From Escherichia coli (lineage in GTDB: Bacteria; Pseudomonadota; Gammaproteobacteria; Enterobacterales; Enterobacteriaceae), in NCBI RefSeq assembly GCF_036507355.1, contig NZ_AP027880.1: a DNA stretch of 10,032 nucleotides, one strand, 5' to 3'. Numbering within the stretch: the first letter of the stretch is position 1; each line of letters begins with the position of its first letter. A program made the translations under genes and the position numbers. The notes below the pieces were generated by a model. The model saw only the letters and a list, made by a program, of their open reading frames with translations. It was not told where the DNA came from and did no database searches. Positions 1 through 5,678 of this stretch are shown here, one piece after another.

Positions 1-270
1 GACCAACAGGGATACAGCTCTGCCACTGCCGTGAGCGCGGACGGCAGCACGGTCGTGGGGGGGGCTGATTACGATCTCACGGCAGGCGGGACGGGCAGGC
101 ATGCATTTCGCTGGACCAGTGCGGGCGGCATGCAGGATTTGGGCGACTTTACGTCCGACCAACAGGGATCCAGCTCTGCCACTGCCGTGAGCGCGGATGG
201 CAGCGTGGTGGCGGGAATCGCAAGCAATGACGCAGGAGAAATGCGTGCATTTATTTACAAAGCGCCTCAG
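1..270 (+). repeat. Continuation of the 156-bp array: unit 7 (1..156) and degenerate unit 8 (157..about 270).
   Basis: The next expected GACTTxAC phase point is 10021+156-10032 = 145, and GACTTTAC is found at exactly 145. Unit 8 keeps DQQGSSSATAVSADGSVVAG and then diverges (RAFIY). Confidence 0.9.
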
Positions 271-2023: not shown

Positions 2024-2078
2024 GCCGGAGGGGGAGCCGCCGCCGCAGGCGGTGGGGGAACCCCGCAGGGGTGCCCCA
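2024..2078. repeat. Copy 1 of a 55-bp GC-rich element with two GCA-loop hairpins; identical to 6089..6143.
   Basis: GCCGGAGGGGGAGCCGCCGCCGCAGGCGGTGGGGGAACCCCGCAGGGGTGCCCCA. Hairpins: CCGCC-GCA-GGCGG (2040..2052) and ACCCC-GCA-GGGGT (2060..2072). Confidence 0.9.
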
Positions 2079-2097
2079 TGTCCTTGTCGCAGCAGCG

Positions 2098-2414
2098 TTT
2101 TCCACAGGTTGTGGCGGCCAATTACAGGTTTAGATTTATAGGATTCTTTTTTTAAAGGCTTAACCTATCGGTTTAGGGGGGGTCCGATTTAACGGGAAAA
2201 AGGGGGTCCGATTTAACGTGGATAAGTACCCTTGGGGGGGTCCGATTTATCGAGGTGGGGGGGTCCGATTTAACGTGGATAAGTGGCGCTATCGACAGGG
2301 TTGTGCACCGTTTTGGTCCCGCTGGGGTTTTCGGACACTTCCAGAGACATAAAACCCCGGAGATTCAATGCGTTGCACACGAATCGCCGGGGTCTAGGGG
2401 GGGCCGATCTAACG
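2098..2414. other. oriV of the RepA replicon: DnaA-box-like site, AT-rich region, four direct iterons plus one degenerate spaced iteron.
   Basis: TTTTCCACA at 2098..2106 (one mismatch to TTATCCACA). AT-rich 2120..2175 (ATTACAGGTTTAGATTTATAGGATTCTTTTTTTAAAGG...). Iterons follow (next feature), with a degenerate GGGGGGGCCGATCTAACG at 2397..2414. The region lies immediately downstream of repA. Confidence 0.75.
2176..2284 (+). repeat. Four direct iterons, consensus GGGGGGTCCGATTTAACG. Iterons 2 and 4 are extended by GTGGATAAGT, the complement of a DnaA box.
   Basis: Copies at 2176..2194, 2202..2220, 2234..2252 (TTATCG variant) and 2257..2277. The TCCGATTTA cores at 2183, 2207, 2241 and 2264 are spaced 24, 34 and 23 bp. 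ACTTATCCACG is on the minus strand at 2217..2227 and 2274..2284. Confidence 0.85.
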
Positions 2415-2446
2415 ACACGTTTGTCGGACACTTCAAGGGGTTAGCG

Positions 2447-3442
2447 TTACTCGGTCGGACCGCCCTTGTAAGAGATCGGCGGCGGGGAACCGAGCAGCAG
2501 GACGCCGCCCGTGACCGGCTTCACCTTGGCCTGCGGATAGACGGCCAGAACCTTCTTGAGGGCCGGCACAAACTTCTTCTTGAAGTCCTTGTCAGCATCC
2601 TTGCCGGTGTACTCCTGCGCGAACTGCTCGCGCAGAGACTTCCAGTGCAAAGTGACGCCGCGTCCCTCGATGCGATGCAGCCGGTGGGCCAGCCAAGCGT
2701 AGACATCGAGCGCCAGCGCCGAACCTTTCAGGGCCATCAGGGCGCGGTTGTCGAGCGGTACGGCGCTTTGCATCAGTGACGTGAAATAGCCCTCGGACAA
2801 CACCATCGTGCCCGGCCATAGCGCCCGCTGCTTGGTGTCGCGGTTCGCCATCCATGCGTCGAACTGCTCGACCGGCTGTCCATTGAAGGTGCGGCCCTTG
2901 AAGCCAAGTTGCAGACGGCAGGCGGCCAGCGCGTGCATCTGCTTGCGCAGGGTCGCATAGCGCGCCCCTTGGTCGTCCAAGCCCATCAGGCTAAGGAACT
3001 CGGCCGCGCTATCACCGATCTTGATTTCGCGCTCCTTGTTGCGCACGGCAAAGGTGGACACCCACGCCAGCGCCAGCCGGGGCATGACGCCATAGGGGAT
3101 CGGTTGCAGCACCGGCCCGTTGCCTTCGTCCAGATAACCGGCCTGCACGTTCACCCACGCGGCCCCGGACTGGCGCATGAACTCGCGCCCCTCGACCTTG
3201 GCGCGGGGCAAGCCGACCTGACAAAGCACGGCGTGAGTAAACGCCATGTCCTCGCCGCTCGGCGGGTTCGTGGCGATTTCGGCGGCCGCGTCGATCAGGT
3301 TTATCTTTTGGCGACTGATGAATGACAGGCTCTTATTGCTCTGCCCTTTAGATGCCGTAGCGTCGGCCGCCCGCTTAACCTCGCGCGGCACAATGTTGCC
3401 AAGCAGCGAACCGATGGGCTGGGGGCCGTTAGATTTGCTCAT
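2447..3442 (-). CDS. repA: Plasmid replication initiator RepA (replication initiator protein A / RPA family, pVS1-RepA-like class).
   Basis: 331-aa ORF. Motifs FTHAVLCQVGLPR...FMRQSG, PYGVMPRLALAWVST and a C-terminal winged-helix-like region are typical of this initiator family. GGAGA lies 8 nt upstream of the ATG (3442). It sits adjacent to the iterons and downstream of parA/parG. Confidence 0.8.
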   Translation of the reverse strand: MSKSNGPQPIGSLLGNIVPREVKRAADATASKGQSNKSLSFISRQKINLIDAAAEIATNPPSGEDMAFTHAVLCQVGLPRAKVEGREFMRQSGAAWVNVQAGYLDEGNGPVLQPIPYGVMPRLALAWVSTFAVRNKEREIKIGDSAAEFLSLMGLDDQGARYATLRKQMHALAACRLQLGFKGRTFNGQPVEQFDAWMANRDTKQRALWPGTMVLSEGYFTSLMQSAVPLDNRALMALKGSALALDVYAWLAHRLHRIEGRGVTLHWKSLREQFAQEYTGKDADKDFKKKFVPALKKVLAVYPQAKVKPVTGGVLLLGSPPPISYKGGPTE

Positions 3443-3469
3443 AAGGCGATCTCCACCGGCATGGCCGGG

Positions 3470-3727
3470 CTAGTTATTGTGGCGCTGCTCGTATTCATCG
3501 AAGGCCAGCCGCAACAGCTCGTTTAGCTTGAGGTCGTGGGCCGCTGCGAACATGCGGAAACGTCGACGCAGCTCGGCCGACACGCGGAAATTGAGCGGCA
3601 CATTGTTCGCCGAGGCCTCGGCCTCGGCCTTCACCTTGGGGGTGCAGGTCGGCATGTCGGCAACCGGCGCGGCGCTGCCCTTCGTGGCAACAAGGCCGGT
3701 CAAATCAGCGGGCTTCTTGGTAGCCAT
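3470..3727 (-). CDS. Small ribbon-helix-helix partition / centromere-binding protein (ParG-like).
   Basis: 85 aa with a disordered N-terminus, then NFRVSAELRRRFRMFAAAHDLKLNELLRLAFDEYEQ (RHH fold pattern). Its start is 1 nt after the parA stop (TAA-t-ATG), the arrangement typical of a type Ib par operon. Confidence 0.7.
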   Translation of the reverse strand: MATKKPADLTGLVATKGSAAPVADMPTCTPKVKAEAEASANNVPLNFRVSAELRRRFRMFAAAHDLKLNELLRLAFDEYEQRHNN

Positions 3728-3728
3728 A

Positions 3729-4379
3729 TTAAACGGTTTCCTTCTTTTTGGTTATCTTCTTAGCGTTCATGCGTTCTTGCACGAAAGCTAAAAGCTGGGA
3801 GATTTCCTCGGCGCTGCGGCTCTTGGGGTCGCTCTCGCCTACGGTGCGGCCGTCCACCATCGAGGCGGCATAGTCCACGCGGTCATGCACGATGGCTGGG
3901 GCTACAGCCCCATGCGCGGACAAGGCGGCCACGGCCTGAACGGTAAGCCGCGCGGTCGGCTTGGCCTGCGTCACGGCGAAGGCGAAAGGCCGGCCGGTTT
4001 CCTGCGCAATGTCCACGGTGCTGCCTACGGCCCGCAGGTCGTGCGGGCTGGGCCGGGTCGGGATCAACACAAGGTCGGCCAGCTTCACCACGTCGCGGAT
4101 AGCCTCGGTGATGGCCGGCGGGGTGTCGATCACGGCCAGCTTGAAACCAGCCTCGGCCAGCGCCCGCAGCTTGGCGGGCAGCTCGGCCAGCGAGGCGGCG
4201 GCCAGTGCCGGGGTGTCGTCCTCGCGGGAGTTCCACCACGCCGAAAGTGACCCTTGCGGGTCAGTGTCGAGCAGGACCGCCGGGCCGGCTCCTGCCTGTT
4301 CGGCGGCAACCGCAAGGTGCGCCGCTAGGGTGGTTTTCCCGGCTCCCCCCTTCTGGCTTGCTAGAACAAGGATTTTCAC
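3729..4379 (-). CDS. parA: ParA-family partition ATPase (small type Ib).
   Basis: 216 aa, GTG start. Deviant Walker A in MKILVLASQKGGAGKTTLAAHLA; also DTDPQGS and VIDTPP motifs. Confidence 0.9.
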   Translation of the reverse strand: MKILVLASQKGGAGKTTLAAHLAVAAEQAGAGPAVLLDTDPQGSLSAWWNSREDDTPALAAASLAELPAKLRALAEAGFKLAVIDTPPAITEAIRDVVKLADLVLIPTRPSPHDLRAVGSTVDIAQETGRPFAFAVTQAKPTARLTVQAVAALSAHGAVAPAIVHDRVDYAASMVDGRTVGESDPKSRSAEEISQLLAFVQERMNAKKITKKKETV

Positions 4380-4412
4380 ATGCGCCCTCTTGATTCGTGT
4401 TGGGACGCTTTA

Positions 4413-4474
4413 ATGATAGCCAAAAAGCACGCATCTTGCAGAGTCTATTGAACAAAAGCACGCTTGCGTGCTTT
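4413..4474 (-). promoter_or_regulatory. Putative parA promoter with operator/centromere-like AAGCACGC sites.
   Basis: On the minus strand: CTGCAA (4436..4441), 17-nt spacer, TATCAT (4413..4418). Perfect palindrome AAAGCACGC-TT-GCGTGCTTT at 4455..4474, plus a third half-site AAAAGCACGC at 4423..4432 inside the spacer. Confidence 0.4.
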
Positions 4475-4476
4475 CT

Positions 4477-4526
4477 GGATTGTGCAATCCAAAAGCCGGG
4501 GCGGCCGGCGCGTGTAATCGCAAACG
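4477..4526. repeat. Left copy of a perfect 50-bp inverted repeat flanking the recombinase cassette.
   Basis: GGATTGTGCAATCCAAAAGCCGGGGCGGCCGGCGCGTGTAATCGCAAACG is the exact reverse complement of 5576..5625. The outer end forms the dyad GCTTTCTGGATTG-TG-CAATCCAAAAGCCG (4470..4498). Confidence 0.95.
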
Positions 4527-4557
4527 GGTAGGGAAGGGGAGGCCGGTTTCTGATGCC

Positions 4558-5190
4558 CTATGCCGCCGGAATCTGCCGGCGGGAGGCCCATATTCGTTTG
4601 ACCTGGCTCTCGCTGCATCCGGCCAGCCGGGCGGTTTCCGCGATGCTCGATCCGCCCTCACGCAAGGCCACGACGCGAGCGTGTAGCGCCCGGTTTGGTT
4701 TCCTACCTCTGTAGCGGCCGGCGGCCTTGGCAAGCTCTATGCCCTGCCGCTGCCGCTCGCGGCGGTCCTCGTAGTCGTCACGCGCCATCTGCAGGGCGAG
4801 GCGCAAGAGCATGTCTTGCACCGATTGCAGGACGATGCGGGCCACGCCCTCGGCCGTCTCGGTCAACTCTGACAGGTCCACCACGCCGGGCACGGCGAGC
4901 CGCGCGCCCTTGTCGCGGATCGCCTGCACAAGCTGCTCGGCCTCGGGCAAGGGCAGGCGGCTAATGCGGTCCATCTTCTCGGCAATGACAACCTCGCCGG
5001 CCTGCAAGTCCGCGATCATGCGCAACAGCTCGGGCCGGTCGGCGCGCGCGCCGGATGCCTTCTCACGATAGACGGCGGCCACGTAGTAGCCGGCCGCCTT
5101 CGCGCTCTCGATGATGGATTCTTGCCGGCGCACGTCCTGCTCGTCGGTGCTGACGCGGATATAGACCCGTGCGACCTTGGACGCTGCCAT
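4558..5190 (-). CDS. Serine recombinase (resolvase/invertase family), 210 aa.
   Basis: Start chosen at ATG 5190, preceded by AGGAGG; the track start at 5310 would overlap the upstream gene. Motifs: MAASKVARVYIRVSTDEQD (catalytic Ser), GARADRPEL, DRISRL, and C-terminal HTH GGSSIAETARLAGCSESQVKRIW. Confidence 0.9.
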   Translation of the reverse strand: MAASKVARVYIRVSTDEQDVRRQESIIESAKAAGYYVAAVYREKASGARADRPELLRMIADLQAGEVVIAEKMDRISRLPLPEAEQLVQAIRDKGARLAVPGVVDLSELTETAEGVARIVLQSVQDMLLRLALQMARDDYEDRRERQRQGIELAKAAGRYRGRKPNRALHARVVALREGGSSIAETARLAGCSESQVKRIWASRRQIPAA

Positions 5191-5201
5191 TTTGGTGCCT
5201 C

Positions 5202-5456
5202 CTACCGGATGCTCGGCATTCCGGTGCCCCGGAACATGGCTTTCTGCTGGGCCGCCATCGCGTTCTTGCAATTGGGCGTGTCGGCCAGCTCGCCGGGGTT
5301 GTTCCGGCATTCCGCGATCTGCGCCTTACGCTCGTCGGGATGGTCGAGGAAATAGGCCACGTCATGCACGGGGCGGGCGTCGGCCGCTTCGTCGCTGCTG
5401 GCAGGATTGCAGGCCGTCAGCACGGCCACGGCGGCGAGCGTCATCACAAGGCGCAT
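5202..5456 (-). CDS. Small lipoprotein, EexN/TrbK-like (entry-exclusion-type) family.
   Basis: MRLVMTLAAVAVLTAC carries a lipobox (LTAC). The mature part YFLDHPDERKAQIAECRNNPGELADTPNCKNA matches my recollection of the conserved core of EexN-family entry-exclusion lipoproteins. AAAGGAG RBS is present. The stop lies 11 nt before the recombinase start, suggesting an operon. Confidence 0.55.
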   Translation of the reverse strand: MRLVMTLAAVAVLTACNPASSDEAADARPVHDVAYFLDHPDERKAQIAECRNNPGELADTPNCKNAMAAQQKAMFRGTGMPSIR

Positions 5457-5487
5457 AGTTTCTCCTTTGGCGCAGTTGGGTATTCCT

Positions 5488-5526
5488 AAATGCGCCCAGC
5501 ATAGCAGCTAGGGCGCATTTGGTGAA
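5488..5526 (-). promoter_or_regulatory. Putative promoter of the lipoprotein-recombinase operon, overlapped by a 10-bp-arm inverted repeat (operator or res-subsite-like).
   Basis: On the minus strand: TTCACC (5521..5526), 17-nt spacer, TATGCT (5498..5503). AAATGCGCCC (5488..5497) and GGGCGCATTT (5511..5520) are separated by 13 bp and span the -10 and the spacer. Confidence 0.45.
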
Positions 5527-5575
5527 TCCGCGATGCTATTGCGCTAGGCTCGCAAAGCCGATCCATCTGCGCCAG

Positions 5576-5625
5576 CGTTTGCGATTACACGCGCCGGCCG
5601 CCCCGGCTTTTGGATTGCACAATCC
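5576..5625. repeat. Right copy of the perfect 50-bp inverted repeat.
   Basis: CGTTTGCGATTACACGCGCCGGCCGCCCCGGCTTTTGGATTGCACAATCC. The outer end forms the perfect dyad CGGCTTTTGGATTG-CA-CAATCCAAAAGCCG (5604..5633). Confidence 0.95.
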
Positions 5626-5634
5626 AAAAGCCGT

Positions 5635-5678
5635 GTTCGCGCTTCGCCGGGCCATCCTCGACGCGGCGAAGCGCGAAC
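5635..5678. repeat. Perfect 14-bp-arm inverted repeat / long hairpin immediately outside the right inverted repeat.
   Basis: GTTCGCGCTTCGCC (5635..5648) and GGCGAAGCGCGAAC (5665..5678) are exact reverse complements. Confidence 0.85.

Follow-up and report, generated by a model that had tools for sequence, protein, structure and literature searches.

Why does a small plasmid carry the same GC-rich hairpin element beside each of two replication genes, and what does that element do? The question is raised by a window of 10,032 nucleotides (the whole stretch of DNA analysed here), which is nearly the entire Escherichia coli plasmid p2017.17.01CC_2 (NZ_AP027824.1, 10,103 bp; human faeces, Viet Nam). 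A preliminary description, made from the letters alone, had reported an identical 55-bp direct repeat in it and had suggested that the repeat might be a single-strand initiation signal, a regulator site shared by two replicons or a small structured RNA; the observation proved sound, and the interpretation is supported in part. The 55-mer was found exactly twice, at 2024–2078 (copy 1) and 6089–6143 (copy 2), both on the + strand, and none of 200 shuffled windows held such a match. Identity between the copies extends to 56 bp (2023–2078 and 6088–6143), and the GC content of the element is 84%. A covariance model scored both copies at 60.4 bits, with the next match at 12.4 bits, and its scan of the window found no third copy. 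From the comparisons set out below we conclude with confidence that the element is a conserved origin-border module, a GC-rich, multi-hairpin block of iteron-type plasmid origins.

BLAST searches of PLSDB with the 55-mer as query returned relatives at 81–94% identity in 73 plasmids from alpha-, beta- and gammaproteobacteria. These include pBBR1 (NC_025015.1, 1493–1543), Paracoccus aminovorans plasmid III, Agrobacterium pAt2, Xanthomonas plasmids and numerous small plasmids of clinical isolates, such as the pG5A4Y413 group, whose accessions are those of carbapenemase plasmids. Judged from the accessions, numerous carbapenemase (GES, KPC, VIM) plasmids are among the matches. For most PLSDB matches, similarity starts and stops at the borders of the element. 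Scans with the exact core gave at least 120 genome loci and at least 120 metagenome loci; the pooled unique contexts number at least 159, and context statistics were taken on the 119 that have at least 300 nt on both sides. Across Proteobacteria the full element is single-copy, plasmid-borne and origin-bound, and the only PLSDB records with two copies are the window plasmid and an error-ridden assembly of a sister plasmid. An apparent second case of duplication, contig L138 (JGI12104J13512_1002980), turned out to be a head-to-tail concatemer assembly of a 4,894-bp plasmid and was set aside. The element is not a common genomic repeat of the host, a possibility raised at the outset: 5,426 complete E. 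coli genomes contain it at 36 places, all on plasmids and none on a chromosome, and the phage collection gave no match.

The surroundings of the element follow one order, which reads hairpin 0, a 10–11 nt spacer, the 5' block GGAGGGGGAGCC, hairpin 1, hairpin 2, a DnaA box, an AT-rich region and iterons. The most AT-rich 40-nt window averages 0.73 downstream of the element against 0.54 upstream, the AT maximum being higher downstream in 114 of the 119 contexts, and a DnaA box (at most one mismatch) lies within 350 nt downstream in 88. Adjacency and orientation to the DnaA box and AT-rich region are fixed in 118 of 119, and the iterons and initiator gene come after these features wherever the sequence was read. 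The adjoining initiators belong to the RepA_C, RPA, TrfA-like, Rep_3 and pBBR1 Rep families and at least one unclassified family. The initiator gene may lie on either strand, while the orientation of the element towards the DnaA box, AT-rich region and iterons is constant, and the element therefore belongs to the host-facing half of the origin, independent of the initiator. Homology to pAt2 (88.8%) begins exactly at 2024 and continues through the origin and repA.

The window itself shows both a typical and an atypical setting. Copy 1 borders a RepA_C origin: it ends 19 nt (about 20 in the preliminary description) before the DnaA-box-like TTTTCCACA (2098–2106, + strand), which is followed by an AT-rich region at about 2120–2165 (maximum AT 0.78 in 40 nt), presumed to be the unwinding element, and by four iterons GGGGGGGTCCGATTTAACG (2176–2290, + strand), a repeat family with the same layout in pAt2 and other RepA_C plasmids; an additional diverged iteron copy lies near 2395–2412. 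The initiator gene of this working replicon, repA (2447–3442, − strand), has its 3' end facing the origin, and its product, previously assigned to RPA, is instead Pfam RepA_C (PF04796). Copy 2 ends 45 nt before the ATG at 6189 of a Rep_3 initiator gene, as described, and this second replication module has no recognisable origin. That the element looks functional and is tied to replication origins is thus upheld by its contexts, but not by the argument first given for it, namely perfect conservation of the core against diverged flanks. Both copies carry one private variant, with a hairpin-1 insert GCCGCCGCAGGCGGTG that occurs in no other of the at least 159 contexts listed, and are therefore recent paralogues or recombination products whose identity says nothing about constraint. 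Even the relatedness of the left flanks is marginal, since only CGCT(A)CAAAACGC is common to the two and 49 of 1,000 shuffles align equally well.

The anatomy of the module is conserved in a way that depends on the part. Copy 1 consists of the 5' block (2027–2038), hairpin 1, CCGCCGCC-GCA-GGCGGTGG (2037–2055; 8 bp with one G.T), and hairpin 2, GGGGAACCCC-GCA-GGGGTGCCCC (2055–2077; ten positions with one A.G mismatch), all on the + strand; the same parts of copy 2 lie at 6092–6103, 6102–6120 and 6120–6142 (+ strand). Both GCA-loop hairpins had been noticed before, with arms shorter than those found here. Of 135 upstream contexts, 117 have hairpin 0 as a perfect stem of 5 bp or more, compared with 15% of shuffles; in 96 of the 117 it ends 10–11 nt before the 5' block, and 35 distinct arms occur. 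The canonical hairpin 0 of copy 2, CGGCCG-CTTG-CGGCCG (6065–6080, + strand), stands 11 nt before its 5' block and is preceded by two more GC hairpins at about 6013–6050; upstream of copy 1 there is a hairpin-0-like GGCCC-TTCTAC-GGGCC (1977–1992, + strand) at a non-canonical spacing of 34 nt.

The 5' block is nearly invariant. Hairpin 1 has a stem of 4–8 bp, variable in sequence and length, and yet pairing extends over the whole span in 45 of 47 distinct inserts, compared with 26% of shuffled ones. An alignment of 29 sequences is 98.7% paired in hairpin 1, with changes on both sides in four of eight pairs; its covariation score of 0.128 (shuffles 0.051) was reached by none of 500 shuffles, and slid controls pair at 40–66% only. 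Hairpin 2 hardly departs from GGGGAACCCC-GNA-GGGGTGCCCC, whose ten positions include a conserved A.G mismatch. When its inner part was left unconstrained, a scan gave about 122 matches, 105 of which were exactly this sequence, and any base may stand at N of the loop (C 50, T 20, A 18, G 17). In two rare variants the loop-closing pair is altered on both sides (CCCG/CGGG and CCCT/AGGG), which is a compensatory change. GNA loops also cap hairpin 1 in 26 of 32 plasmid-type variants and in 29 of 45 paired inserts of the larger set, and a G.T wobble occupies a fixed position of hairpin 1 in 18 variants. The opposite strand would have TNC loops and A.C mismatches, and the hairpin structure therefore appears, from these sequence comparisons, to be selected on the + strand. 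A G-quadruplex reading was set aside, as there are three long G-runs only and hairpin covariation accounts for the data.

Two further observations concern relatives of these hairpins. Many RepA_C- and RPA-type origins (loci L007, L008, L010, L025, L054 and others) have two to four extra GNA-loop mini-hairpins before the DnaA box, 0–130 nt after the element, for example GCC-GAA-GGC and GGGCC-GAA-GGCCC. Separately, the hairpin-2 core preceded at its 5' side by CCGGAGGGG, with no hairpin 1, is a dispersed repeat in some metagenome-assembled genomes (MAGs) of Actinomycetes (L015, L029, L036, L085, L095 and others) and in the Clostridia-binned MAG Lapin-025 bin54 (L022, L033, L131 and others). It occurs on several contigs per MAG, with 1–4 copies per 8 kb and covariance-model scores of 25–52 bits, and 8 of the 18 Clostridia MAG repeats lie outside any open reading frame (ORF) of at least 110 aa, within clusters of other GAA-loop mini-hairpins. 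With their many dispersed copies, these hairpin-1-less relatives resemble repetitive extragenic palindromic (REP) repeats and bacterial interspersed mosaic elements (BIMEs).

What might such a module do at an origin? The reading towards which we lean, tentatively, is that it is a single-strand initiation (ssi) signal for priming or replisome loading, placed like ssiB of IncQ plasmids; among the functions offered earlier, this is the one that the comparative data favour. Initiator and DnaA would open the AT-rich region, and the helicase would then travel away from the initiator-bound iterons and unwind the module. The + strand, which would be the leading-strand template of that fork, would fold into very stable GNA-loop mini-hairpins, poorly covered by single-stranded DNA-binding protein (SSB), and these would mark where the host priming system lays the first primer for the strand leaving the origin. 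The same signal on an incoming strand may also start complementary-strand synthesis in a conjugation recipient, as the ssi sites of R1162 are reported to do. GNA mini-hairpins are extraordinarily stable, bind SSB poorly and are present at the priming sites of G4, where GNA or GNNA loops occur, and of RSF1010 ssiA (PMC13037366). Priming sites of the G4 (primase) and phiX174 (PriA) types are clusters of hairpins in single-stranded DNA that evade SSB and bring in the priming proteins of the host, and the element resembles them in being a stable hairpin cluster apparently selected on one strand, as judged by covariation, strand-specific wobble and GNA loops.

The closest parallel in position is provided by ssiA and ssiB, 40-nt hairpin signals that the helicase exposes at the origin. 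RepB' binds their single-stranded 5' block and primes there, and the two sites are said to be unique to IncQ-like plasmids (PMC8567376). We made the comparison with an IncQ1 plasmid, in which ssiA is CCTTTCCCCCTACCC-GAA-GGGTGGGGGCGCGTGTGCAGCC and ssiB, on the other strand, is CCTTTCCCCCTGCCGC-GCA-GCGGTGGGGCGG... Like the element, these signals have a conserved single-stranded 5' block followed by a GC-rich hairpin with a GAA or GCA triloop, and they lie within the origin, beyond the AT-rich region. Moreover, ssiB adjoins the AT-rich region, its hairpin strand runs 5' to 3' towards that region and the iterons, and this strand is the predicted transferred strand, all as for the element. Hairpin 1, with its stem of 4–8 bp and its mostly GNA loops, matches the description of an IncQ-type hairpin (about 21 nt with a GNA loop, in the origin by the AT-rich region), and identical stretches of 15–17 nt, CCCGAAGGGTGGGGG from ssiA and GCCGCGCAGCGGTGGGG from ssiB, recur in element variants of pG5A4Y413 and a Nitrotoga plasmid. 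The ssi domain has reportedly been found to be a separable origin module (Honda et al. 1991). There are also differences. IncQ ssi sites have the 5' block CCTTTC and a RepB' primase, whereas the element has GGAGGGGGAGCC, two or three tandem hairpins and no plasmid primase; and ssiA and ssiB form an inverted pair on opposite strands, whereas the element has a single orientation in all contexts and its two copies in the window are direct repeats.

A second parallel is the GC-rich region of RK2 (IncP-1), pMOL98 (PromA) and RSF1010, which flanks the AT-rich region opposite the iterons; the element has the same position. The family of RPA-type initiators found beside the element includes the PromA RepA proteins. 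The RK2 origin sequence used for comparison had a 100% match in PLSDB. Read towards the AT-rich region, its GC-rich block starts with CCGGGAGGG and forms a row of mini-hairpins, two of them with GCA loops as read by eye (GAAGGGGGG-GCA-CCCCCCTTC and AGGGC-GCA-GCCCT); its sequence cannot be aligned with that of the element. We know of no function or discrete conserved motif assigned to the GC-rich blocks of iteron origins, and none was found in the searchable literature. Two kinds of known object thus lie close to the element, ssi signals and GC-rich blocks beside AT-rich regions; of a discrete, strand-specific, initiator-independent module of three hairpins no description was found in the searchable literature, a scope that leaves out most subscription papers, including the original studies of the pBBR1 and pMOL98 origins.

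These GC-rich blocks, reported for pMOL98 and visible in RK2 and RSF1010, invite another explanation, in which no folding is needed: at the level of the duplex, a GC clamp would set the outer limit of unwinding or position the unwinding element. Such a clamp would account for the high GC content, for the fact that the element always abuts the DnaA box and AT-rich side, and for folding energies no better than those of shuffled sequences. However, it needs base composition only, and would not call for the compensatory changes by which hairpins 0 and 1 retain their pairing, nor for the GNA loops, the strand-specific wobble and the base-by-base conservation of hairpin 2. We regard it as unlikely, if the best of the alternatives.

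The single-strand initiation reading also draws on the polarity of transfer. The window has a MOBQ-type oriT at 8671–8705, just upstream of an intact MobA/MobL relaxase gene (7079–8599, − strand). On the + strand it consists of the inverted repeat GTTTCTCGG-CTTG-CCGAGAAAC followed by AACTAAGCGCGCC, which is the layout of the RSF1010 oriT strand CCAGTTTCTC-GAA-GAGAAACCGG-TAAGTGCGCC; we take the latter to be the nicked, transferred strand, with the relaxase gene entering the recipient last. By this polarity the + strand of the window is the predicted transferred strand, and it is the same strand on which the hairpins pair best. The relaxase gene is likewise opposite the hairpin strand in all 24 loci that have both the element and a MobA/MobL relaxase (31–97% identity), so that the hairpin strand is again the predicted transferred strand. 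This result is supportive only, because the 24 loci are not phylogenetically independent lineages and because the bias could come from co-orientation of genes with a unidirectional fork. The element itself was rejected as an oriT or a nick site of an HUH enzyme, the real oriT lying elsewhere and the nick motif TAAG(T/C)GCGCC being absent from it.

Taken alone, the strand bias in the 24 MOBQ loci and in the window, where both copies lie on the predicted transferred strand, would suit a signal used in conjugation only, the hairpins starting the complementary strand in the recipient with no role in vegetative initiation. That model does not require the fixed adjacency and orientation to the origin that nearly all contexts show, and the element is also present in plasmids typed as non-mobilizable (17 of the 73 in PLSDB); we think it distinctly improbable.

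Besides the limits of the relaxase result, several points weigh against a single-strand initiation signal. Thermodynamic folding of either strand is no better than that of shuffled GC-rich sequence (z −0.1 to −1.3), so the structural evidence is comparative, not thermodynamic. A conserved primase start triplet 3' of hairpin 2 was not seen. Neither RSF1010 ssiA (6.5 bits, E about 7.5) nor the GC-rich region of RK2 (11 bits, E about 0.9, at the correct place and on the correct strand) is recognised by the covariance model; the link to IncQ ssi sites is therefore one of analogy, not family membership, and the RK2 block is likewise an analogue. Pfam scans of the window ORFs found neither a RepB'-type primase nor any other primase domain, and since no plasmid primase is encoded in the window, a host enzyme must be assumed. 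Some Actinomycetes MAGs and one Clostridia MAG carry related motifs as repeats scattered over the chromosome. The priming role is a prediction from sequence. Finally, hairpin 2 and the 5' block are almost invariant, which sequence-specific protein binding would fit too.

This last point leads to a third alternative, in which the element is bound as duplex DNA by a conserved protein of the host or the plasmid, such as a nucleoid protein, gyrase or a regulator common to both replicons. The 5' block and hairpin 2 remain nearly unchanged across alpha-, beta- and gammaproteobacterial hosts, and the REP-like relatives in other phyla recall the REP elements of E. coli, which bind gyrase, IHF and Pol I. 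Yet the plasmids have no protein in common (pBBR1 carries Rep and Mob ORFs only), hairpin 1 varies in sequence and length while staying paired, and the asymmetric G.T and A.G features speak for DNA folded as a single strand. The regulator coupling the two replicons, proposed earlier, fares no better, since the element stands beside RepA_C, RPA, TrfA, Rep_3 and pBBR1-Rep origins and copy 2 has no origin to couple. We consider a protein site of this kind very unlikely.

Could the element be a selfish or neutral repeat, akin to REP elements or to miniature inverted-repeat transposable elements, and a recombination hotspot that accumulates at the junctions of mosaic plasmids? Homology between unrelated plasmids does start or stop at it, the core with CCGGAGGGG is dispersed in the Actinomycetes and Clostridia MAGs, and the duplication in the window is itself a recombination product. 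A repeat of this kind would not be expected at one copy per plasmid, in one fixed place and orientation within the origin, with two copies in this plasmid and its sister only, and the chromosomal dispersal typical of REP elements is not seen in the host, as the element is absent from the 5,426 E. coli chromosomes and from phages. Its probability seems to us slight. An element acting as RNA, either a terminator or insulator that keeps outside transcription from entering the origin or the small regulatory RNA suggested earlier, is the least probable of all. In its favour, G.U wobbles are tolerated in RNA, the traD-like gene of the window points into copy 1, and hairpin 2 of pBBR1 is followed by TTCTTT. 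Against it, the element belongs to no Rfam family (an Rfam scan of the window gave chance matches only, none at the element), scans for promoters and terminators found nothing at either copy, most variants have no U-tract, and the gene upstream of the element is directed away from it in many plasmids.

A bolder extension of the single-strand initiation reading would make the module a universal, initiator-independent start signal on single-stranded DNA, read by a host factor and used by at least six replicon families, including the pBBR1 vectors, both for the first leading strand and for the complementary strand after conjugation. Its core, CCGGAGGGG with GGGGAACCCC-GNA-GGGGTGCCCC, would then be read by widely conserved replication machinery, and its relatives would have spread as REP-like repeats in Actinomycetes and in the Clostridia-binned genome. 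We put this forward as speculation, and as rather unlikely in so general a form. Origins of the pBBR1 type are among the most used broad-host-range vector parts, and to our knowledge origin maps have for decades shown a GC-rich region in iteron origins with no function assigned to it. As a discrete, strand-specific unit common to unrelated initiator families, the module would give that region a directly testable function, namely where and how the first primer is laid. It would also help to explain the modularity of origins, in which the half that faces the host (hairpins, DnaA box and AT-rich region) seems able to be exchanged from one Rep-specific half to another. The module could also be used to mark and orient origins in unannotated plasmids.

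Why, then, does this plasmid have two copies? The Paracoccus plasmid is homologous to the window over traD (1708–1908), the element, rep (6189–6979, 94%) and mob-oriT; in it, as in other relatives with Rep_3, the element is followed by TTATCCACA, an AT-rich region, iterons TGTGCCTTTTTTCCGGT and rep. The Rep_3 gene of the window (6189–6986, + strand) is intact (Rep3_N and Rep3_C) and 94% identical to rep of P. aminovorans plasmid III, with an uncertain start at 6189, at 6213 or at the RefSeq position further downstream, near 6292. No DnaA box, AT-rich region, iterons or promoter-like site was found upstream of it, and iterons of the Paracoccus type were found nowhere in the window; the gene therefore looks like an orphan initiator. 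Correspondingly, copy 2 lacks origin features downstream: it is the sole context of the 119 with a downstream AT maximum below 0.6 in 40 nt, and it has no DnaA box. The place that these features take in relatives is occupied by a GC-rich 45-bp spacer (6144–6188, + strand), which holds a GGGCC-GCA-GGCCC mini-hairpin and a GGAGG ribosome-binding motif. It resembles the Achromobacter-type extension GCGGAGGGCCGAAGGCCCGGAGGG and part of the run of extra GNA-loop mini-hairpins that follows the element in many RepA_C- and RPA-type origins.

The canonical unit is thus split between the copies, with its upstream half (hairpin 0) at copy 2 and its downstream half (the origin) at copy 1, which is what a single crossover at the element leaves behind. 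The breakpoints of homology coincide with the element, and the segment 2024–6088, if circularised, restores a canonical RepA_C/Par/resolvase plasmid. We infer that the duplication fits a single crossover, at the element, between a RepA_C/ParA/resolvase mini-replicon (2024–6088, 4,065 bp) and a Rep_3/MOBQ plasmid. After such an event both junctions would carry the element, in direct repeat; copy 1 would serve the active RepA_C origin, and copy 2 would be a remnant that afterwards lost the DnaA box, AT-rich region and iterons belonging to it. The module would then offer unrelated plasmids a short stretch of conserved homology for fusion, as this plasmid illustrates. The identity of the copies is a difficulty here, because a crossover between two different parents does not by itself give identical copies of a unique variant, and the fusion requires either gene conversion or parents that were already identical. 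Recombination between the direct repeats could in turn release the 4,065-bp mini-replicon, in agreement with the earlier suggestion that they might mediate excision of the 4-kb repA-par-res segment.

The remainder of the mini-replicon, all on the − strand, encodes a ribbon-helix-helix protein (3470–3727), ParA (3729–4379), a resolvase (4558–5190) and an EexN lipoprotein (5202–5456). The resolvase and EexN-lipoprotein genes lie between the arms of a 54-nt inverted repeat (4473–4526 and 5576–5629), which are 98% complementary; the left arm is within the parA upstream region, a third partial copy is found at 5891–5925, and the repeat contains the palindrome GGATTGTGCAATCC. These arms could be duplicated res sites, operator sites or the borders of an invertible segment.

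Two distinct traD-like 5' ends are present in the window. The first (1708–1908) is 95% identical to the Paracoccus traD and has two internal deletions, and the second (8803–8851, 86%) adjoins oriT and is cut off by an insert of autotransporter and toxin-antitoxin genes; two related MOBQ plasmids have therefore contributed to this mosaic backbone. PLSDB types the plasmid as non-mobilizable with a ColRNAI replicon, and both labels look wrong, given its clear MOBQ-type oriT and intact MobA/MobL relaxase. The autotransporter C-terminus (beta-domain) lies at 31–1245, and its passenger has long, near-identical tandem repeats of about 147 nt that span the ends of the window (1–230 and 9079–10032); this cargo is low in GC compared with the GC-rich plasmid backbone. 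Between the beta-domain and traD, at 1384–1711, a small antitoxin-like ORF and a ParE-family toxin ORF cut at 66 aa appear to be left over from a toxin-antitoxin pair.

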